From positions 1,056,001 to 1,120,000 of the forward strand of contig OZ241322.1 of the NCBI GenBank assembly GCA_965199715.1: DNA of 64,000 nt, read 5' to 3'. The first letter of the stretch is position 1. Each line of letters begins with the position of its first letter. Under the pieces are notes generated by a model. It made no database searches. It was not told where the DNA came from and saw nothing but the letters and a program-made list of their open reading frames with translations. A program made the position numbers and the translations under genes. Source of the DNA: Vicinamibacteria bacterium. Lineage in GTDB: Bacteria > Acidobacteriota > Vicinamibacteria > Marinacidobacterales > Marinacidobacteraceae. Of this stretch, positions 41,946 to 51,589 are shown piece by piece.

Positions 41946-42338
41946 TCAGACCGGCGGGAAGAGGATCCGGCGAAATGTCGCGGTCGCGTAGCGGGTCGCC
42001 TCGTAGCGCTGGATCTGCTGCTGCGCGAGATCGAGACGGTCAGCGAGGTCTTTCCGGCTCAGGCCGGCGGCGATCCGCGCCTTGTCGAGGGCGTCCCCGA
42101 ATTCCGCGAGCGAGCTCGTCGGAATCCGCCCGAGGTTGGCGGAGCCGAGGCCCTCGTGCTCGCCCAGCTCCCTTCGAAGGTCGGCCGGAACGCTCTCCAT
42201 TCCCTCGCCTTCGGCTCGCAGCCACCGCGGATGGACGTCGGCGCGCTCGGGGGCGAAGGCGTGGAACTCCCGGATCGCCCGCTCGATCCGCCGCGCTTGG
42301 GTCCGGGTGATCCAGTACTGGCGCTGGTTCGCGATCAC
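41946..42338 (-). CDS. XRE-family HTH regulator/antitoxin, probably C-terminally truncated
   Basis: MIANQRQY.IT start and ARIAAGLSRKDLADRL....QQIQRYEA HTH. Confidence 0.75.
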   Translation of the reverse strand: MIANQRQYWITRTQARRIERAIREFHAFAPERADVHPRWLRAEGEGMESVPADLRRELGEHEGLGSANLGRIPTSSLAEFGDALDKARIAAGLSRKDLADRLDLAQQQIQRYEATRYATATFRRILFPPV

Positions 42339-42688
42339 GAGACGCCCTCCAGTCGGACGCGCACGACGCCCGACGAATGCAGGTGCGCCGACGACGGCGA
42401 GCGCAGTTTGCTGGCCGGTCAGGCTCGCCCGCAGGTCGTCGGCGCCGATGCGCGGGCGCCCGGGGCGTTCGGCCGGTCGAATCTGGCTCTCGTAATGGGC
42501 GGCCTCGCGACCGCCTTCGAATACCCGGTAGCGAACCTCCGCGTCACCGGTCGCGACGGCGATGATCGCGACGACGACTTCGGGCCTGGCGCGGAGCGTC
42601 GGGCATGGGAATCCGCGGGAGGTTATCCGAGAGATCGGACATTTTCCGTCACGCTTTCCAAGAAACGGCTGGTAACCTCGCGCCCCGC

Positions 42689-45673
42689 ATGGACAGTCCG
42701 GTCAAGGAGCACCACGAGCTACAGCCGATCCTCCACTCCCCCTACGACGAGCCCGACCGGCACTGGAAGCTGGTCGATCACCAGACGACCGGGGACATCG
42801 TCGATCGCCGCCGGCCCGCCGAGGAGCGCGCCCCGACCCGGCGGCGCCGGCAGAAGGCGCTGCTCGGGGACGACCAGGTGGGCGAGACCGGAACGACGCC
42901 CAGCCCCATCGACAACTTGCGCGCGGAGGTTCGAGAGTGGCGCCGCGCGCAGTGGCCGGGGGTCACCGGAAACACCCGCCGGCTGCTCGAGTACTGGGCG
43001 CGTCCGCCGGGCGAAGGGGCGTACCACAGCCCCTTCTTCGCCCAGCGCGAGGCCGTCGAGACGGTCGTGTACCTCACCGAGGCAGCCGACTCGAACCATG
43101 AGTGCGTGCGGCGCCTGAAGAAGCTCGGCGACGACTGGAGCGGGGGCCTCACCCGGCTCGCGATCCGCATGGCCACCGGCACCGGCAAGACCACGGTCAT
43201 GGCGATGCTGATCGCCTGGTACGCGGTCAACCGCCGCGCGGAGCACCGGGCGGGACGCGGACTCGCGCGCAACGTCGGCATCCTCGTCGTCATCGCCCCC
43301 GGCCGGACGATCTCGGGCCAACTTCGCCGCCGGCTCGACCCGCGCCGCGGCGACAGCCTGTACGACTCGGGCCGCCTGCTGCCGCGGGATCTGCGGCCCC
43401 GGCTCAACAACCTCCGGGTGACCGTCCTGAACTTCGAGAAGCTCCGGCCCCGCCCGGCCGTGGGACTGCGCTCCATCGAGATCGAGGGCAAGGAGGCCAT
43501 CGGCTGGGCGCGGGCCGAGGAGACGGCCGAAGTCCCCGAGACCTACGACCAGCTCTGGGACCGGCTGCTCGGCCGCGTGGACCCGCGGCACGGCGACCGG
43601 GTCGTGGTCCTGAACGACGAGGCCCACCACTGCTGGGAGCGCAAGGCGGGCGCGAAGAAGCGGCGCGACGGCAGCGACCAGGGGGTCTGGATGGAGGCCA
43701 TCCACGCGCTGGACGACCACCCGCGGTTCCGCGTCGCGCAGGCCATCGACCTGAGCGCCACGCCGTTCTTCATCGACCCGGCCAACACCCACGTTCCCCC
43801 GGACACGAGGATCCCGCGGCGGGATCCGCTGGTTCCGTGGATCGTGAGCGAGTTCGCGCTCACCGAGTCCATGGAGGCCGGCCTCGTCACGATCCCCACC
43901 CCGCCGCGGAAGACCGACGCCGCGGAGCCGGACGCGCTCCAGAACCTGTACGAGGACAACGGCGGCCGCAGCCTCGACTCCGCCGCGAACCGGAAGAAGG
44001 TGCTGAACGCGGCGCGCCTGCTCTACTCCGACTACGAGGCCACTTTCAGGGCGTGGAAGGAGCAGGGCGACCCCTCGATCGGGCGTCCGGTGCTCATCGT
44101 CATCGTGAACTCGAAGAAGAACGCGCGGGCGATGCTCGACATGCTGGGCGGCGCCCGCCGGGGGACCGAGGACGCCTGGGACATGCCGTCGGGGTTCGAT
44201 CTGCTCTCCAACGTGCCCCACAACGGCGCGACCGAGCAGGAGTGCCTCGCGCGGCCCGCCCGGACCATCCTCGTGTACAGCAAGGGCCAGGGCGCGGTCG
44301 AGAAGAGCGCCGACAGCCGCTTCGACCAGGGCGCGATCGGCGTCGAGGAGGTCAAGGACAGTCGCAAGCTGGAGGAGATCCTGCAGACGGTCGCCGAGCC
44401 GGGCCGCCCCGGCCAGCACGTGCGCTGCGTCGTGAGCATCGGCATGCTGACGGAGGGCTGGGACTGCCAGCGGGTCACCCACATCCTCGGCTACCGCAAG
44501 TTCGGCAGCCAGTTGCTGTGCGAGCAGACCACCGGGCGGGCGCTGCGGCGCCACGACTACGAGAACCGGATCGAGGTTCGCCGAAGCGACGACGGGAACG
44601 TGACCGAGCGGTTCGAGGCGACGTACGCGACGGTGCTGGGCGTGCCGTTCAAGAACTTCGGCCCGCCGCCGGGGCCGACCCCCGGAGTCGTCAAGCCGCG
44701 CCGCACGGTCCGCGCGGTCGAGGAGCGCCGGATCAGCCATCGCATCCGGGTTCCCGACCTGTGCGACTACAAGCTCGTCCACGACACGCCGACGATCAAG
44801 CTGGATCCCGACCGGGTGGGCGCGGCCAAGCTGGCCTCGAGCGGCGACCGGATCGAGATCACCTGGGCGAAGTGCCGCGGGCCGTTCGGCAAGGAGCGCG
44901 TGCTCAAGGCGGCTCCCGCCGGACGGCCGGACGCGGGGGCGTGGAAGCTGGCCGCCGATCTCGCGACCTGGCTCACGAGGCGTCGGAGCGACGACCTGCG
45001 CAGCGGCCGCCTCTTCGCGTCCTGCCTCGTCGCCGTGAGGGCGTGGCTCGCCCACGGGAAGGTCGAATGCGAGCGGCCCGAGGCGCTTCTCCACGACGAC
45101 GTCCGGCAGGAGGCGCTCCACCAGATCCTGCACGCGGTCGTGGACGACCGCGACGCGCCGATCCAGAAGGTCGGAATCGCGACCGACCCCAAGGCGCTGC
45201 GCCGCTCGGCGGGCGACTGGGGGCCGTTCCAGACCACGCTGACCAACGTCGCGGAGGTCGGCAACTCGGAACTCGACCTCGCCGCCTGCCACAACCATTT
45301 CGAGACCAGGATCGTGCGAGCGCTCGACAAGCACCCCAGGGTCGCCGCGGTCGTGCGCAACCACGGCCCCGAGCGGTTCGAGATCCCATACCGCAGCGGC
45401 GGACGGTGGGCGCGGTACGTCCCTGACTTCATCGTCCGCGCCGAGCCGATCGACGGGGTCACGCCGCACCTGATCGTCGAGGGCAAGGGGCCGCGGGACG
45501 GAAAGGCGGCGGACAAGGCGGCGTGGACGAGGGAGTGGTGGGTTCCCGCCGCGAATCACGCCGCCCGCGACGAGGGCGAGCCGGAGGCCCGATGGGGCTA
45601 TCTCGAGATCCGATCGCTCGAACGTCTCGACCAGCAGATCGAGGCGGGCGTCCGGAGGACCGCAGCGTCATGA
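42689..45673 (+). CDS. Type III restriction enzyme Res subunit (SF2 helicase plus PD-(D/E)xK nuclease)
   Basis: FFAQREAVET, MATGTGKT, NDEAHH, MLTEGWD and YVPDFIV...IVEGKG motifs. Confidence 0.9.
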   Translation: MDSPVKEHHELQPILHSPYDEPDRHWKLVDHQTTGDIVDRRRPAEERAPTRRRRQKALLGDDQVGETGTTPSPIDNLRAEVREWRRAQWPGVTGNTRRLLEYWARPPGEGAYHSPFFAQREAVETVVYLTEAADSNHECVRRLKKLGDDWSGGLTRLAIRMATGTGKTTVMAMLIAWYAVNRRAEHRAGRGLARNVGILVVIAPGRTISGQLRRRLDPRRGDSLYDSGRLLPRDLRPRLNNLRVTVLNFEKLRPRPAVGLRSIEIEGKEAIGWARAEETAEVPETYDQLWDRLLGRVDPRHGDRVVVLNDEAHHCWERKAGAKKRRDGSDQGVWMEAIHALDDHPRFRVAQAIDLSATPFFIDPANTHVPPDTRIPRRDPLVPWIVSEFALTESMEAGLVTIPTPPRKTDAAEPDALQNLYEDNGGRSLDSAANRKKVLNAARLLYSDYEATFRAWKEQGDPSIGRPVLIVIVNSKKNARAMLDMLGGARRGTEDAWDMPSGFDLLSNVPHNGATEQECLARPARTILVYSKGQGAVEKSADSRFDQGAIGVEEVKDSRKLEEILQTVAEPGRPGQHVRCVVSIGMLTEGWDCQRVTHILGYRKFGSQLLCEQTTGRALRRHDYENRIEVRRSDDGNVTERFEATYATVLGVPFKNFGPPPGPTPGVVKPRRTVRAVEERRISHRIRVPDLCDYKLVHDTPTIKLDPDRVGAAKLASSGDRIEITWAKCRGPFGKERVLKAAPAGRPDAGAWKLAADLATWLTRRRSDDLRSGRLFASCLVAVRAWLAHGKVECERPEALLHDDVRQEALHQILHAVVDDRDAPIQKVGIATDPKALRRSAGDWGPFQTTLTNVAEVGNSELDLAACHNHFETRIVRALDKHPRVAAVVRNHGPERFEIPYRSGGRWARYVPDFIVRAEPIDGVTPHLIVEGKGPRDGKAADKAAWTREWWVPAANHAARDEGEPEARWGYLEIRSLERLDQQIEAGVRRTAAS

Positions 45674-48247
45674 GCAAGACCCCGGACGCCTGGGAGCACG
45701 GCGGCAAGCGCCCGAACAACCCCACCCAGGAAATCGTGGAGACCGCGAAGCCGCGGCGGAGCCGCCAGCACGCGAAGGACGTCCGGGCGCGCAGCGACGC
45801 CGAGCCCACGCTGCGCTGGAAGCGCTCCCGCGAGACGAAGACCGCGGCCGCGCCGATGCTCATGCGGGCCGAGCAGATCGACCCCGAGGCGTGGGTCACG
45901 ACCCTGAAGCGGGTGCGCGAGCAGGGCGACCTGTTCGCCCCGTTCAACGCCTTCCGGGAGCCCGGATCGGCGACGCTCGACTGGTACCAGCACGCCGGCA
46001 ACTGGTCGAACCGGCTCATCCACGCCGACGCCCGGCGGGCGATGGCGTCGCTGCTGGAGCACGAGCACGCCGCCGGCTCGGTGCAGATGTGCTTCTTCGA
46101 TCCGCCCTACGGCATGGACTTCGACGCAAGGTTCGGCAACGACACGATCCAGCGGCGGGCGTTCGTGGACACCTACGAGAAGGGCGTCCACTCGTATCTC
46201 GACGGAATCCGCGAGACCGCGATCCTCGCCCGGGAGCTGCTGACCGAATCGGGCAGCCTGTTCATGCAGATCGGCGACGTGAACGTCCACCGCTGCGCGA
46301 TGGTGCTGGACGAGGTGTTCGGGCCGGAGAACCGGGTGACGACGATCACGATGGCGACGACCGGCGGCGGCAGCAGCACCAAGTCGATCGCGAAGGCGGG
46401 CGACTACCTCCTCTGGTACGCGAAGGACCGCGAGGAAATGGCCTTCCAGGCGCTCTACGAGGAGCAGGACGTCGAGGCGTGGTGCGATGGCCAGACTTTT
46501 GCGGGGGGGGGGGGATTTCCCTGATGGAACGCGTCGAGCGCTGAGGCCCGAGGAGCGGCGAGACCCAAAGCGGAATCTCCCGGAAGGCACTGTCCTTTGG
46601 GCGATGCGAACGTTGTTGTCGCAGGGGCCTTCCAGCGGCGAACAGGGCCAACCGTTCACGTGGAACGGAATTCAGTTCGGCCCGCGAGGACTCGAAAAGG
46701 ACCAGTGGCGTGTGGATCGCGCCGGCCTCGAGGCCCTCGCCACTGCAGATCGCTTCTGGACAGCGGTGAAGCCAGGGACCCAGACGGCGCGAGCCGCTCA
46801 ACTCCAGCTACGGATTCTTAGGTCGGAAATGGCGGGCCGACGCCTCAACAACGTCTGGGCCCGGCAGATCGCCGCGACCGACAAGCGTTATCCCGTCCAG
46901 ACGGGGGATCTCGCCATCCAGCGCTGCATGCTGATGACGACCAAGCCGGGCGACCTCGTGCTCGATCCGACCGGTGGCAGCGGCACGACGGCGGTGGTCG
47001 CCGAGGAGTGGGGCCGGCGCTGGATCGCGATCGACAGTTCCCGGGAGAGCCTCGCCGTCGCCCGGGAGCGCGTGCTCGTGCGCGAGTACCCGGCGCATCT
47101 CCTGATCGGAAGCGCCGCCGGGTTCGCCCGGGAGAACGCGCTGCGCCACGCCGCGGGTCAGGAGCCGCTCGCCGGGCGGCCCCACGGCTCCCGCGATCCC
47201 GCCACCGGGATCGTCGTGGGCCGGACGCCCTACGTGAGCGCCGCCACGCTCGCCTACCGGGACCGGCCCGACAAGGCCCGAACGCGCGACGTCACGTGGT
47301 TCGCGGACCGTCCCGACGGCGGCAAGAAGGGCGGCCGGATCGCGAGCCGGTTCACCGTCGAGACCGAGCACCTCGAGCAATACCGCAGCCCCGAGGAGCT
47401 TCTCAGCCCCCGCGAGCGGCGTCGGCAGGCGGACTGGAACGAGCGCGTCCTGCGCATGCTCGGCGACAAGGGCGTCGGCTCGAACGAGGGAACCCGCTGG
47501 ACGCTCGAGGACATCGAGAACGTCGCCGACCGGCAACCCGAGAGCCGCCCCGGCGCGATCAGCCACCGCTGCCGTCTGATCGACCACGCCACCGGCGCGG
47601 CGAAGGACTGCGTCATCGCCATCTGGCCGCAGGACGCCAAGGTCGGCGTGGGCAACATCCAGCGCAACGTCCGCGAGGCGATCAGCCAGCACGTCGGCGG
47701 CGACGACCTCGCGCTGATCGTCGTGGGCGCGGAGATCGACGGCGGCTCGCACCAGTCGCTCGACGGCGGCCGGTGGCAAATCCCCGTCGCCCGCATCGAG
47801 GCGGGGGCCGAGCTGCATCTGAAGGAGACCCGGCGCAAGGCCGGCGACTCCGAGTCGGCGCTGCTTCTGGTCGCGGAGCCGGACGTGGAGGTCGAGGACG
47901 CCGGCGACGGGAAGCGCCGGGTCGCCGTCAAGGGCTGGCACCAGTTCAACCCGGTGACCGGCGAGTCGGACTTCTACGCCGCCGACCACATCCGCATGTG
48001 GCTGCTGGACACCGACTACAACGGGACCGAATTCTGCGCCCGCCGCATCCACCTAAGCGCGAAGCTGCGCGCGAAGGAGAACCGGAAGGTGCTCCAGAGG
48101 GTCCTCGGGCGCAAGGGCGACCCGGACGCGATCCGCGCGGTGTTCGGCTCCCGCAGCGAACCGTTCCCCGCGCCCGAGCAGGGCGAGATCGCCGTGCGCC
48201 TGATCGTCGGGAACGGGAGCGTCCTGAGCTGGCACGGCCCGGCTTAG
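45670..48247 (+). CDS. Type III Mod-like N6-adenine DNA methyltransferase, frameshifted at a poly-G tract (two ORFs: 45670-46524 and 46487-48247)
   Basis: DPPY motif IV in part 1 and DLVLDPTGGSGTT motif I in part 2. ATGA overlap with res. Removing one G joins the frames. Confidence 0.88.
46503..46514 (+). repeat. G12 homopolymer inside mod (candidate phase-variation switch)
   Basis: GC-G12-ATTTCCCTGA. It is the longest homopolymer I noticed in the window. Confidence 0.85.
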
Positions 48248-48309
48248 GGCCGGGAGCCTCGCCGCCCTTCTTCACGCCTACAGTTTGACAATCCGGGTAA
48301 CCTTCCGGT

Positions 48310-49056
48310 GTGGCTGCGACGACGCGAAGCTTCCAAGGCGGCGCAGTGACGGACCCGGCCCGCCCCGTCGACGACAGCGGCTCTGGATTCGAACTCATTG
48401 AGCTGTCAGTGGTTTTCGCAACCACGTCGAACAACCCGTCAATCATCAATCCGGATTTTCTCGCTCGCGCCGGAATCGTGGGCGAGGACTCGCCACTTAG
48501 CGGTGACCCCATCACTACTCCGGTGTTCTCACTGGTGAAGTACCAAACAGGCCTCGCCGTGCAAGCCGATCCTGAACGGGTCGTGTTGACGGAATCCCCG
48601 AATACTGGGAACCGGGTTGGCGCCCGGTGCGCACGGATGGCGTCGACATACGCGCAGGCGGTCCCGCACGTGGCGTACCGAGGAATCGGCGTCAATCCGA
48701 AGTTCTTTTTCCACCTCGTCCCGACAGTTCAGGCGGAGATGGCCCGACTGCTGCATGAGCGCGGCGGTTGGCTGGAGTTCAAGGATTGCGAACCCACGGT
48801 GCAGCTCAAGGCGGTTTACGCACTCGACGCTCGCCAGATCACTGTCGATGCGAGCGCCGCCACAAGACGCTTGGGGCAAGGGGCCGAGCAGCGCGGTTTG
48901 CTAGTCCAGTGCAACGTGCACCGGGAGCTCACCGGTGACGCCGAGGAGCGGGCAGACGCCATGGCAACGATTCTTGAGCGGTGGGAGCGCGACATGAAGG
49001 ACTGCCGAGAAGTGGCGCGGCGCTTCGCCGGTCGCCTTCAGCAGGAGGCCCAGTGA
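48310..49056 (+). CDS. Hypothetical protein, TIGR04255-like; gene 1 of the lower-GC operon
   Basis: SVV....NNPSIINPDFL...GIV, Y.GIGVN and N.HR.L motifs. Alternative GTG at 48346. Confidence 0.6.
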   Translation: MAATTRSFQGGAVTDPARPVDDSGSGFELIELSVVFATTSNNPSIINPDFLARAGIVGEDSPLSGDPITTPVFSLVKYQTGLAVQADPERVVLTESPNTGNRVGARCARMASTYAQAVPHVAYRGIGVNPKFFFHLVPTVQAEMARLLHERGGWLEFKDCEPTVQLKAVYALDARQITVDASAATRRLGQGAEQRGLLVQCNVHRELTGDAEERADAMATILERWERDMKDCREVARRFAGRLQQEAQ

Positions 49057-49826
49057 ACGAGACGCCGCTCCAGTCGCCAACGAAACGCCGACTGGTCGCA
49101 ACCACGGCTCTCCTGACGGGAGATTTCGGCGAACGCGCTGACGCGACCAGGCCGCCAAGCTTCCCTGAGGAGGCCTTCTTGGCGGCGGAGGTGCGTGTCC
49201 CCTACGTCGTGCGTGCCGACCGAGTCCTGGTGCGGCGGGGTGGGCAGAATGCGACTTCGAGTATGCATGAGAATTTTTGGGCGGGGCTCGTTTCGTCCGG
49301 CAGTGCCGTCGGCGAGTTCGATAGCCCACTGCGCGAGTTCCACACCAACACCCTGAAGCCGGCGTTGAACGTTCTCACGCTTCTGGCACTCGTCAAGGCA
49401 ACCCAAGCCGAGCACACCCGCGGCATGGCCGGAATGCCGGACGCCACCGCCGCTCCGGACGCGAACGCGGACCTGCGAGCCGCCCTGATCGACCTTGATG
49501 AAGCGTCGGACGAGGCGCGAGAGGAAGGGTTCCCAGCGCTTTCCGAGAGGGCTCTAGGCGACGCCAGACGCCTGCTGAAGGACCTCTACCGTATGCACCC
49601 TTGCCGACTTGAGGTCTATCCGACGCCCGATGCCGAGATCGCTCTCGTGGCGCCCGGCGGGGACGATAGATCCGTGATGGTGTTGTGCGCTTCGGATGGC
49701 GGCGCTCTATGCACAGTCAACATTGACGGGAGACTCCGATACGCACGGTACCCAAGCGCCGCCAGGCTCCCGGACGGCTTTGTCCGTGAAGGCATGCGGG
49801 ACTTGGTCCGAGCGAGATCGCATTGA
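49053..49826 (+). CDS. Hypothetical protein; gene 2 of the lower-GC operon
   Basis: GTGA overlap with gene 1, a disordered-looking N half and a compact alpha/beta C-terminal domain (A..LL......EVYPTPD.EI.L). Confidence 0.6.
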   Translation: MNETPLQSPTKRRLVATTALLTGDFGERADATRPPSFPEEAFLAAEVRVPYVVRADRVLVRRGGQNATSSMHENFWAGLVSSGSAVGEFDSPLREFHTNTLKPALNVLTLLALVKATQAEHTRGMAGMPDATAAPDANADLRAALIDLDEASDEAREEGFPALSERALGDARRLLKDLYRMHPCRLEVYPTPDAEIALVAPGGDDRSVMVLCASDGGALCTVNIDGRLRYARYPSAARLPDGFVREGMRDLVRARSH

Positions 49827-50254
49827 CGCAGGCGCCGACGGCGATCCATGCCGCTGAGCAGCTTGGACGCGGGGTTTTCTCCGCCAAGGACGCGAAGCGG
49901 GCTGCCCGTTCCAAGATTCCACATCGGGTGTTCCTTACGAAGCCCGGGGTTGTACGCATTTCAGTAGACAGGCTGAATTTGGCTTCCGCGTCGGAAATCG
50001 TCACACTGGCCATCGACCGGGCCGAGAATCGACCGGGACGATTCCATGGCTGGGCCGTCTTGAGCGTGGACAAGGCGATCCGCAAGGGGCGACGCGTCGA
50101 GTCCACACCGGCAGAGGGAAATCCGCATCACGCCGACATCGTGCTTCCCGATCCCGCACGCGAGGATCGGGACGCTCAGATCGCACACGCGAGGGATATG
50201 GCTGACGCATCGAATTGGAAGCCGCGACCTGAAGCGACTTCAAGAGACTCGTGA
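49823..50254 (+). CDS. Hypothetical protein, possible ADP-ribosyltransferase-like fold; gene 3 of the operon
   Basis: TTGA overlap with gene 2. LGR...ISVDR...NPHHADI pattern. Confidence 0.6.
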   Translation: MTQAPTAIHAAEQLGRGVFSAKDAKRAARSKIPHRVFLTKPGVVRISVDRLNLASASEIVTLAIDRAENRPGRFHGWAVLSVDKAIRKGRRVESTPAEGNPHHADIVLPDPAREDRDAQIAHARDMADASNWKPRPEATSRDS

Positions 50255-50355
50255 TTCACGCTCGCGAGTGATAGCGGCCACGGCTGTCCTCAAGCGGGCA
50301 CCGGAAAAGCAGGACCGGGTTCTGCGCCCGTCGCAAGCGACGACCGACCACGGCG

Positions 50356-50595
50356 TCACGGCCCCTCGTCGCGCTTCTCTCGAAAGAACTCCCCGGCGGG
50401 CTGTCCGAGCGAGGGCATCGTGGCCCGGAAGCGCGCCAGATCTTCAACCGCCACGGGTTTCTTGGGGCGAGCTACGGCGGTGAGTCTCGCCACAGTCTTG
50501 CCCCGCCGCGTGATCAGAATGTCCTCACCGGCCTCAACGCGGTTCACGATCTCGCTGAGACGAGCCCTCGCGGCGGAAACGCTGATGGTCGTCAC
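50356..50595 (-). CDS. Phd/YefM family antitoxin
   Basis: ISVSAARARLSEIV.RVEAGE.ILITRRGK.VARL. Confidence 0.88.
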   Translation of the reverse strand: MTTISVSAARARLSEIVNRVEAGEDILITRRGKTVARLTAVARPKKPVAVEDLARFRATMPSLGQPAGEFFREKRDEGP

Positions 50596-51051
50596 GAGAA
50601 TGCGTGGCCCTGCCAGCTCATGGCGATCGGGCCCGCCGTCGTCGGGAGTTCGAGCATTTCGCCGGCGATGAGCATCCCCTTGTCCAAGGTGTAGATGGCG
50701 GCGGCATCGTGATTTCGGGCGATCGCAAGGTGAAGCGCGTCACCCGCTCGCAGCCCGGTCTCGAAGTACCCGAGCCAACTCGCTGCTAACCGGAAATCGT
50801 CCTCCGTCGGGGTCAGTCGAACGAAGGAGTCCCGAACCATGCCTCGTAGCGGGCGCTTACGGCATGGGCCGCCGGGCCGTCAAGCTGGCCCATGCAACCT
50901 CGCGCGCAAACGTAGAGGCAACTTCAACCCCGGTCCAGTCGCTGACCGCAAGTCCCCCCACGCACGGAGCCGCGAAGAACTCAGCTATCGCGAAGCTGTG
51001 GGCTTCGTCCAAGAACAGCGGAACCAGGAAACTCGTGTCGAAGTAGCGCAT
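50592..51051 (-). pseudogene. vapC: VapC/PIN toxin, frameshifted
   Basis: MRYFDTSFLV N-terminus and LRAGDALHLAIA...TLDK C-terminus lie in different frames. Two single-base losses near 50895 and 50843 restore a continuous PIN protein. Confidence 0.82.
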
Positions 51052-51069: not shown

Positions 51070-51309
51070 TCACCTTCCCTCGTCGCGCATCTCGCGGATG
51101 AGCTCCGCCGACGGTCGGCGCAGGCGTGGCATCGAAGTCCGAAAGCGCTCCAGTTCCTTGAGCGGCAGCGGTTTCTTGGGACGGAGCACGGCGGTGAGCC
51201 GGATTGGCTGCTTGCCCCGGCGAGTGATGACGACATCCTGCGCGTCCGCAAGCTTGTCCAAGACTTCGTCGAGGCGCACCTTCGCCCGATTGAGACTGAT
51301 CGTGAACAT
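51070..51309 (-). CDS. Phd/YefM family antitoxin (cognate position for vapC)
   Basis: AKVRLDEVLDKL...DVVITRRGK...SAELIREMRDE. Confidence 0.85.
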   Translation of the reverse strand: MFTISLNRAKVRLDEVLDKLADAQDVVITRRGKQPIRLTAVLRPKKPLPLKELERFRTSMPRLRRPSAELIREMRDEGR

Positions 51310-51355: not shown

Positions 51356-51589
51356 TCAGCTCTCCTCGTCGGACACTTCCGGCTCGCGCTCCCCCGACGG
51401 CCGGCGTCGCATCGAGGCCCGGAGCTTGGCCAGTTCCTCGAGCGGCGGCGGCTCCTTGGGACCGAGCACCGCCTTCACGTGCACGGACTCCTTGCCGCGG
51501 CGGGTGATGACCACGTCCTCCCCCTCGGCGAGCTTGTCGAGAATCTCCTCAGGGCGCGACTTCGCCTTCGTGTACGTGATCGTGAACAT
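51356..51589 (-). CDS. Phd/YefM family antitoxin, tandem paralog
   Basis: MFTI...ILDKLAEGEDVVITRRGK, nearly colinear with the 51070-51309 gene at a 280-bp offset. Confidence 0.75.
   Translation of the reverse strand: MFTITYTKAKSRPEEILDKLAEGEDVVITRRGKESVHVKAVLGPKEPPPLEELAKLRASMRRRPSGEREPEVSDEES

Follow-up and report, generated by a model that had tools for sequence, protein, structure and literature searches.

Within a 64,000-nucleotide stretch of a Vicinamibacteria bacterium genome (NCBI GenBank assembly GCA_965199715.1, contig OZ241322.1, positions 1,056,001 to 1,120,000 of the forward strand; hereafter the window), three chained open reading frames (ORFs) at 48310-50254 probably constitute a horizontally acquired three-gene toxin-antitoxin (TA) module, lying in a small restriction/TA island and resembling the tripartite toxin-antitoxin-chaperone (TAC) systems. 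The second and third genes are predicted to encode an antitoxin and a toxin with an ADP-ribosyltransferase (ART)-like fold, and the first is a modular third component, found as the partner of many unrelated TA pairs. A preliminary description of the locus had suggested a new TAC-like or anti-phage system; its observations are confirmed and its interpretation is supported in part, and it had missed the modular character of gene 1. The operon is laid out as follows.

48310-49056, forward strand: gene 1, 248 aa when read from the first GTG; a further possible start is the in-frame GTG at 48346 (ORF listing)
49043-49048, forward strand: Shine-Dalgarno-like AGGAGG inside the end of gene 1, 4 nt before the gene 2 GTG (direct reading)
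49053-49463, forward strand: N-terminal extension of gene 2, ~137 aa, unalignable among homologues
49464-49826, forward strand: conserved C-terminal domain of gene 2 (hereafter gene 2C), ~115 aa, isoelectric point (pI) 5.2, plus the stop codon; proposed toxin-binding antitoxin domain
49823-50254, forward strand: gene 3, 143 aa, TTG start, pI 10.3 (ORF listing); proposed toxin

The lengths of about 248, 257 and 143 aa and the stop-start overlaps reported earlier were reproduced by the ORF listing and by direct reading, the stop of gene 1 and the GTG of gene 2 sharing GTGA, and the stop of gene 2 and the TTG of gene 3 sharing TTGA. The longest ORF for gene 2 has 281 aa, from 48981, and the GTG at 49053 gives 257 aa. 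None of the three proteins matched Pfam or NCBIfam, and PADLOC-DB v2.0.0 (E ≤ 1) gave no match apart from gene 1 with SngB (E 0.044), in keeping with the earlier suggestion that the system is uncatalogued.

Genes 2 and 3 and their relatives

Scanning the genomes of 185,579 species with a pattern yielded 152 relatives of gene 3; locus counts refer to the best 80 loci, which come from many phyla. Using tblastn, gene 3 was found in 80/80 of these loci and gene 2C (residues ~138-253 of gene 2) in 77/80. ORF mapping placed gene 2C directly upstream of gene 3, often with a 4-bp overlap, and downstream of it in L003. The C-terminal 113 positions of gene 2 are conserved and its N half is unalignable among homologues. 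The remaining three loci (L034, L065 and L074) carry a gene 3 homologue without detectable gene 2C; L065 has a 214-aa ORF of no known family between its gene 1 homologue and gene 3, and L034 a 126-aa ORF overlapping the end of gene 3.

Of 1.84 billion cluster representatives, 1430 were detected by the gene 2C profile (A4) at E ≤ 1e-3, and the domain is nearly always C-terminal, preceded by ~10-260 aa. Pfam analysis of 24 long forms of gene 2 identified Macro in L079 (E 3.1e-25), RelB in P0193 (3.3e-14) and TPR repeats in L044, with no domain in the other 21. Among the 150 best gene 2C representatives there was one Phd/YefM (P0326, 1.6e-8), one type I S-subunit fragment and one sub-threshold match, the other 147 having none, and a search for "longer" gene 2C fusions gave 13 proteins, of which 0 had a Pfam domain. 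RelB and Phd are well known as the DNA-binding domains of antitoxins, and Macro is an ADP-ribose eraser used by DarG. The Macro-bearing protein (L079:4546-5997, 483 aa) comprises the Macro domain (residues 18-129), a middle of ~200 aa devoid of Pfam matches and gene 2C, and an intact gene 3 homologue comes after it. Some proteins carry a tandem double gene 2C domain (P0200-P0204, P0333), and in P0217 gene 2C is apparently joined to the last third of a gene 3 homologue, for which a deletion or an assembly artefact is possible.

The complex of gene 3 with gene 2C was predicted with an ipSAE of 0.92 in each of three runs, the best control reaching 0.44, with a partner pLDDT of 93 and a contact agreement of ≥93%. 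The prediction used our own alignments; in the calibration of the tool the ipSAE mark was reached by 58/80 solved complexes and by 2/110 mismatched pairs. On gene 3 the predicted contact surface is made up of residues 20-40 and 87-88 together with the C-terminal helix 116-129, and the two partners are of opposite charge (pI 10.3 against pI 5.2). A search of PDB sequences with the gene 2C profile gave nothing usable. Because the genes are adjacent and coupled, because antitoxin-type fusions occur in relatives and because binding is predicted, we interpret gene 2 as the antitoxin to the toxin encoded by gene 3, and hold with good confidence that the two proteins bind one another as such. Adjacent, small, overlapping genes with a predicted direct antitoxin-toxin contact are the arrangement of a type II TA module.

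The 73 homologues of gene 3 have lengths of 127-163 aa, and 0 of them carry a Pfam domain. The pattern R...ISVDR...NPHHADI pointed out in the preliminary description proved to be the conserved core of the family: in 32 sequences R16, S47, V48, D49, R50 and N100 are invariant and H103, A104 and D105 near-invariant, with E12 and S20 as further conserved residues. The AlphaFold2 model of gene 3 (pLDDT 92.2, pTM 0.84) was compared exhaustively with 48,161 PDB representatives using VIA, which returned 7 chains with Z ≥ 5 and 0 chains with Z ≥ 8. Judged from their titles, around 40 proteins in the best 50 rows have the ART fold. The list is headed by KptA of the KptA/Tpt1 family (Z 6.8, root-mean-square deviation 3.4, 94 aligned) and Tse2 (Z 6.7, 107 aligned, 16% identity), and includes AvrPphF ORF2 (Z 5.8), mouse Tpt1 (Z 5.6), Tne2 (Z 5.6), TreX (Z 5.2), DarT (Z 4.2-4.7), TreTu (Z 4.7) and structures of ParT, MbcT and RES (Z 3.0-3.2), with Scabin, CopC, pertussis-, cholera- and diphtheria-like toxins, SidE, Arr, NarE, Xre-RES and HopU1 in lower rows of the 50. 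Tse2, AvrPphF ORF2, Tne2 and protein 6b are among the matches that we take to be of ART fold. Foldseek against the PDB gave KptA/Tpt1 as the best plausible rows (probability 0.80-0.87, TM 0.39-0.46).

We accept gene 3 as ART-like because this match list is one-sided, despite modest scores, and the fold proposed earlier for this protein is upheld to that extent; gene 3 would represent a new, uncurated family with an ART-like (split beta-sheet) fold. In the model R16 lies on strand 1, S47, D49 and R50 lie on strand 2, and N100, H103 and D105 lie near a late strand. The NAD+-contacting Arg and Ser of R-S-E ARTs sit on the first two strands. R16 and S47 of the modelled protein fit the first two positions of the ART triad, and the third could be D105, H103 or N100. 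We incline, by a small margin, to the view that gene 3 uses NAD+.

Gene 1, its fold and its partners

The motifs NNPSIINPDFL and N.HR, singled out in gene 1 by the preliminary description, belong to a conserved family core. Among 108 homologues at 24-48% identity the N42-L51 loop (NPxI[IL]NPDFL) is 88-100% conserved, with N47, P48, D49, F50 and L51 at 98-100%, and Y123, G127, N129, W154, Y170, N202, H204 and D228 are conserved at 88-98% (N202 96%, H204 89%). Gene 1 is acidic (pI 5.7) and so is its family (median pI 5.5, with 5.6% of the 108 homologues above pI 8). No real Pfam match was obtained for homologues of gene 1 (0/51, with two sub-threshold chance hits) and no PADLOC match (0/23), and PDB sequence searches with the gene 1 and TIGR04255 profiles returned nothing usable.

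The model of gene 1 (pLDDT 84.7), unstructured over its first 23 residues, forms a two-lobed sheet-plus-helix saddle. VIA matched it to TBP (Z 8.1 and 8.0, ~160 aligned), the McsB protein-arginine kinase domain (Z 8.0, 171 aligned), taurocyamine and arginine kinases (Z 7.7 and 7.0, 177-182 aligned) and AdoMetDC (Z 7.4-6.8), and Foldseek gave TBP at E 3e-4. The family thus appears, as modelled, to be an uncurated one with a TBP/AdoMetDC/guanidino-kinase-like saddle; TBP-like DNA binding by gene 1 is disfavoured because the family is acidic. The only close structural relative in any library searched is BFVD A0A515MGR4, an unnamed viral protein of 202 aa, which resembles the gene 1 model over nearly its full length (Foldseek E 7.7e-10, TM 0.61/0.73, 17% identity).

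Two identities considered for gene 1 in the preliminary description were not borne out. A SecB-like protein was rejected because the TBP/McsB/AdoMetDC saddle was found in its place, a two-lobed saddle being incompatible with the SecB fold; no SecB appeared among the fold matches or in Pfam or NCBIfam, although absence from a list of fold matches is not decisive in itself. The TIGR04255 family shares with gene 1 a length of ~250 aa and a sporadic distribution, but its NCBIfam model (30-bit cut-off) matched neither gene 1 nor its homologues (0/29 and 0/45). Searched genome-wide, the same model exceeded the cut-off in 26/301 genomes of the phylum and left the gene 1 locus without a match, and hhalign of gene 1 against a profile of 19 true TIGR04255 members gave a probability of 0.09%, the conserved motifs being different. 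The ESM Atlas cluster nearest gene 1 has the automatic name "putative TIGR04255 family protein" (score 0.96), a label that offers a lead but does not amount to a test. Elsewhere in the same genome, outside the window, a 73-aa open frame (G000:C1:1779807-1779950) has a sub-threshold match of 49 residues to the TIGR04255 N-terminus (22.8 bits).

Gene 1 relatives head many other operons. A metagenome scan found 190 relatives, from which 80 loci (24-48% identity) were kept; gene 2C and gene 3 are present in just 5 of the 48 loci with ≥1300 nt downstream of the gene 1 homologue. The other 43 loci have two tightly chained downstream genes in 35 cases, one in 5 and none in 3, with median lengths of 212 and 146 aa and median gaps of -1 and +1 nt. 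Pfam was run on 92 proteins of gene 1-headed operons and identified the following last genes, proteins beyond these loci being without a family.

L122: RES (E 9e-15)
L150, L158 and L160: PemK/MazF (E ~1e-12)
L185: PIN (E 4e-7)
L169: HNH (E 1.4e-4)
L163: HEPN (E 0.007, weak)

In L122 the protein encoded ahead of RES has 296 aa and, at its C-terminus, an Xre/MbcA/ParS toxin-binding motif (21 bits, under the cut-off of 24.5). The last genes of two other groups, A7 and A8, share the ISV and NP-x-H-A motifs with gene 3: hhalign related gene 3 to A7 with a probability of 64% (E 6.6e-5) over 83 columns spanning both motifs and A7 to A8 with 85%, and gave 0.5% for gene 3 against A8. Gene 2C aligned with the partner proteins of A7/A8 (A9) at 20% (E 1.1e-3) over 79 collinear columns, which is suggestive only. 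Another conserved last-gene family of 179-264 aa (L117, L127, L135, L140, L148) has no Pfam or PADLOC match, and the largest last-gene group, with 11 members including L124 and L163, has weak matches to HEPN (0.007) and PDC-M05B (7.5e-5). These operons show gene 1 to be a modular third component, the partner of many unrelated TA pairs, and its constant first position ahead of swappable antitoxin-toxin pairs suggests a role analogous to that of the TAC chaperone. The same pattern of a conserved partner with swappable pairs is described for SecB in TAC systems in the available text of PMC11618068.

Returning to the 80 gene 3 loci, tblastn detected gene 1 in 33/80; a match in L054 (59 residues, E 8e-4) was discounted and the gene 1 profile added L062, L065 and L050, bringing the family to 35/80 loci. 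The conserved unit is gene 2C plus gene 3, and the trio, which had been expected to co-occur and does recur, is not universal. In 33 of the 34 gene 1-bearing loci where gene 2 could be measured, its N-terminal extension is ≥60 aa. Long forms of gene 2 also occur in ten other loci that hold a different gene of 217-246 aa in the position of gene 1, namely group A5 (L038, L046, L070, L073), group A6 (L052, L058, L076, L077, L078) and the singleton L039; these were noticed because gene 2 is long, and so are not independent support for the link between gene 1 and the extension. Counted together, extensions of ≥60 aa occur in 43/44 partner-bearing loci (median 105) as against 10/33 partner-less loci (median 23), the partner-less lengths being upper bounds taken from the longest ORF. 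The upstream genes of A5, A6 and L039 have no Pfam or PADLOC family, and hhalign found no relation of A5 or A6 to gene 1 (probability <0.3%); against TIGR04255 it gave A6 17% over 152 columns, weak and collinear, and A5 0.3%. Whether gene 1 acts through the extension of gene 2 we judge to be evenly balanced.

Genomic setting and distribution

The operon differs from its surroundings in composition, as the preliminary description had noted from the greater share of A/T-ending codons. GC content at third codon positions is 0.735, 0.733 and 0.667 in genes 1-3, compared with 0.935 in res, ~0.89 in mod, and 0.946 and 0.941 in flanking housekeeping genes, and windowed GC is 0.63-0.66 over 48000-51000 against 0.70-0.75 outside. 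Pfam also bears out the position given earlier, between a type III restriction-modification (RM) system and a VapBC/Phd cluster, through matches to ResIII, N6_N4 methylase, Phd/YefM and a split PIN.

41946-42338, reverse strand: helix-turn-helix (HTH) gene (Pfam)
42605-45673: ResIII helicase, followed by the N6_N4 methylase, upstream of the trio (Pfam)
45523-46524 and 46487-48247: type III mod methylase in two overlapping ORFs
50356-50595, 51070-51309 and 51356-51589, reverse strand: three Phd/YefM genes
50592-50840 and 50857-51051, reverse strand: single PIN toxin gene, apparently broken, the former part having the PIN C-part and the latter no Pfam match

Between them the two mod ORFs encode a single N6_N4_Mtase domain, its N part and its C part being separate, and the break falls at a run of 12 G (46503-46514); it could reflect a phase-variable gene or a homopolymer sequencing error. 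A contig from a DNA run carries a rearranged or duplicated version of 50356-50800. Scanning 48100-50500 revealed no site resembling a promoter, and terminator-like sites were no more frequent than expected by chance. The stretch is contained in 8 public runs from three studies, 2 of them labelled sponge metagenome and 2 metatranscriptome libraries. Contigs of two metatranscriptome libraries from one study tile the locus at a depth of 4-8, and one RNA-library contig of 2110 nt (47885-49994) extends from the end of mod through genes 1 and 2 to the start of gene 3; DNA carry-over is possible for both.

The defence context of relatives was examined in 28 loci (L002-L029), taking on either side the nearest pair of ORFs with ≥150 aa (103 flanking ORFs) and PADLOC matches at E ≤ 1e-8. 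A match was present, as a raw count, in 17/28 loci, and 14 of these gave strong, specific matches (HmaA/HmaB/HmaC, type I S, type IIG RM, DrmMI-like, HEC-05, HEC-03B, PD-T4-4, PbeC, PDC-S01, PDC-S31 and Dsr1); the remaining three comprised one generic UvrD/GajB-like and two weak TIR matches. In L002, L006, L010, L020 and L075 (the last by BLAST clustering only) the module is flanked by an HmaA-type helicase on one side and an HmaB-type methylase on the other. Relatives are thus found in defence islands, as the preliminary description had anticipated, and also embedded within a defence system, whereas the window copy adjoins the type III RM system and is not nested in it. An embedded position is what nominates defence genes in the accessible part of Payne et al. 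(10.1101/2024.01.29.577857), where the list HEC-01 to HEC-09, as given there, contains no ART. That the module gives anti-phage defence is a possibility to which we assign somewhat less than an even chance.

Gene 3 is distributed patchily, being present in 11/61 related genomes, 9/27 of the same family and 1/3 congeners, the congener copy having an internal TAA stop; four genomes contain 2-3 gene 3 matches each. Searches of limited sensitivity did not find gene 3 in IMG/VR (pattern scan), PLSDB or a phage collection, nor gene 2C in phages. No description of these families was found in the open-access literature searched, and none on TIGR04255 by name.

Proposed mechanism, alternatives and significance

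According to the available text of PMC11618068 and 10.1101/2024.02.24.581848, TAC systems have an antitoxin with an unstructured extension and a third protein that occurs with many toxin families, the toxin of CmdTAC being an ADP-ribosyltransferase. The present operon is like TAC systems, CmdTAC included, in having three co-directional, coupled genes, a putative toxin, a putative antitoxin made of a small toxin-binding part and a long extension, and a third protein that is found with many toxin families. It is unlike them in that gene 1 is not SecB-like, that the extension of gene 2 is N-terminal and its conserved domain C-terminal, where the TAC antitoxin has a C-terminal ChAD, and that the order here is accessory-antitoxin-toxin; gene 3, moreover, matches no CmdT or other PADLOC model. 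Of the tripartite reading put forward earlier, the ART-fold toxin and the antitoxin-toxin pair have therefore stood and the SecB-like third protein has not.

DarTG likewise combines an ART-fold toxin with a cognate antitoxin, and the gene 2 relative in L079 has an N-terminal Macro as DarG has, but gene 3 lacks the DarT Pfam match (DUF4433/DarT) and is ~70 aa shorter than the matched DarT chains. Gene 2 of the window carries no Macro domain, and neutralisation would therefore be by binding and not by reversal of the modification. In Xre-RES, ParST and MbcTA a small ART-fold toxin is neutralised through direct binding by an upstream antitoxin, as is predicted here, and a RES gene with an MbcA/ParS-type antitoxin stands behind the gene 1 homologue of L122; gene 3, however, has no PF08808 (RES) match, gene 2 has no Xre/MbcA/ParS C-terminal match, and the motifs differ. 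The PADLOC candidate PDC-M32 is matched weakly by A7 genes (PDC-M32B, 4.6e-6) and their partners (PDC-M32A, 5e-7), but genes 1-3 themselves give no PDC-M32 match, so that the relation is at best at superfamily level, and PDC-M32 is modelled with two genes and no gene 1. The PDCs are "guilt-by-embedding" candidates, defined as such in the accessible part of 10.1101/2024.01.29.577857.

In the mechanism that we propose, gene 3 would be the toxin, a small basic ART-fold protein. Its substrate would most likely be NAD+, either spent on the modification of a macromolecule or simply destroyed. The acidic C-terminal domain of gene 2 would bind and neutralise gene 3, and the long, non-conserved and presumably disordered N-terminal extension of gene 2 would be the part on which the gene 1 saddle acts, whether to stabilise it, to mask it or to use it for sensing. 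On this view the trio would operate in the manner of a TAC system, despite the lack of any relation between gene 1 and SecB and despite an extension at the N-terminus and not at the C-terminus. Loss of gene 1, or its displacement, for example by a phage protein, may expose gene 2 to proteolysis, which would free the toxin, so that growth stops or the infection aborts.

A number of observations weigh against this account. The ART scores of gene 3 are modest, and VIA's own note calls best Z values of 7-8 common without clear relatives; Foldseek gave gene 3 no PDB match at E ≤ 0.001, no Pfam ART family matches it, and a profile search of PDB sequences found nothing. The canonical third catalytic Glu of ARTs has no obvious equivalent in the protein, and Tse2, among its best matches, is to our knowledge a toxin of ART fold for which no ART activity has been established. 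The Macro, RelB and Phd fusions are rare (1/24, 1/24 and 1/150 proteins, respectively). The conserved polar residues of gene 1 (N47, D49, Y123, N129, Y170, N202, H204 and D228) could mean an enzyme or ligand site and not a chaperone, and the association between an upstream partner and a long extension (Fisher p 7.5e-11) comes from co-occurrence statistics that ignore kinship of the loci. No robust shared motif was found in the N-terminal extensions, a Gibbs search giving an information content of 13.8 against 12.0-12.8 in shuffles, and this largely from related sequences. Gene 1 is absent from 45/80 loci, and the toxin-antitoxin pair therefore works without it. Since no phage, plasmid or viral-contig relative was found, the case for mobility is drawn from composition and patchiness.

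Different roles for gene 1 have also to be weighed. Genes 2 and 3 could be an ordinary two-gene TA system for which gene 1 is a dedicated transcriptional regulator of the operon, as with omega in omega-epsilon-zeta and PaaR in paaR-paaA-parE, where a first-gene regulator accompanies an antitoxin without a DNA-binding domain. Gene 1 is indeed first in the operon, its fold matches include the DNA-binding TBP saddle (Z 8.1 and 8.0; Foldseek E 3e-4), most gene 2 homologues (147/150) have no Pfam domain and hence no recognisable DNA-binding domain, and the rare variants with an N-terminal RelB or Phd carry it where the extension sits. We nevertheless consider a regulator improbable: the family is acidic, unlike TBP-type DNA binders, Pfam finds no HTH or ribbon-helix-helix in gene 1, saddles that do not bind DNA match it equally (McsB Z 8.0, AdoMetDC 7.4), and the link of gene 1 to an antitoxin extension of ~100 non-conserved residues is left unexplained. 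Those non-DNA-binding saddles raise the prospect that gene 1 is instead an enzyme on a guanidino-kinase/glutamine-synthetase-like or AdoMetDC-like scaffold, which modifies the extension, the toxin or a small molecule covalently. The matches to McsB (Z 8.0, 171 aligned) and to arginine and taurocyamine kinases (Z 7.0-7.7, 177-182 aligned) are near full length, and the polar and aromatic set that is 88-99% conserved in the 108 homologues looks like an active or ligand site. At the sequence level, however, gene 1 resembles none of the kinase or decarboxylase families, no nucleotide-binding motif was identified in it, and all its Z values are in the range that VIA calls common for unrelated arrangements, so that we give the enzyme a slightly smaller chance still than the regulator.

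For gene 3 the alternative is a Tse2-like toxin, in which an ART-like scaffold has no NAD+ chemistry and acts by binding or, for instance, as a nuclease. Tse2 ranks second among the matches and has, within the top rows, the longest alignment and the highest identity, and gene 3 has neither a canonical R-S-E or H-Y-E triad nor a match to a Pfam ART family. We regard this as unlikely, if a little less so than either alternative for gene 1, because R16 and S47 are invariant and lie on the first two strands, as do the NAD+-contacting residues of R-S-E ARTs, because one gene 2 relative is fused to Macro, an ADP-ribose-binding or -removing module, and because another gene 1-headed operon uses RES, an NAD+-consuming ART-fold toxin. 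A TAC-like module with an ART-fold toxin, a directly binding antitoxin and a guardian protein in gene 1 remains, in our opinion, the best explanation for the operon.

Genes 2 and 3 add an uncurated pair to the ART-fold toxins, with ~150 genome loci and 1430 partner cluster representatives, and the family is apparently concentrated in uncultured marine and sponge-associated lineages that defence catalogues under-sample; models of all three genes are possible additions to PADLOC or DefenseFinder. Speculatively, and at odds that we would put well below even, gene 1 may define an unrecognised, widespread three-component class in which an acidic protein other than SecB controls unrelated antitoxins through a disordered N-terminal extension and serves as the infection sensor, the toxins of the class being the ART-like gene 3, RES, MazF, PIN, HNH and others, and gene 3 may be the founder of a family of small nucleic-acid-modifying ADP-ribosyltransferase toxins. 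The precedent of TAC is that a chaperone added to a TA pair can serve as a phage sensor. If gene 1 has such a role, it would be a second, structurally unrelated solution, already combined with at least 6 toxin types, and the logic of an antitoxin extension plus a guardian protein would be directly testable across families.

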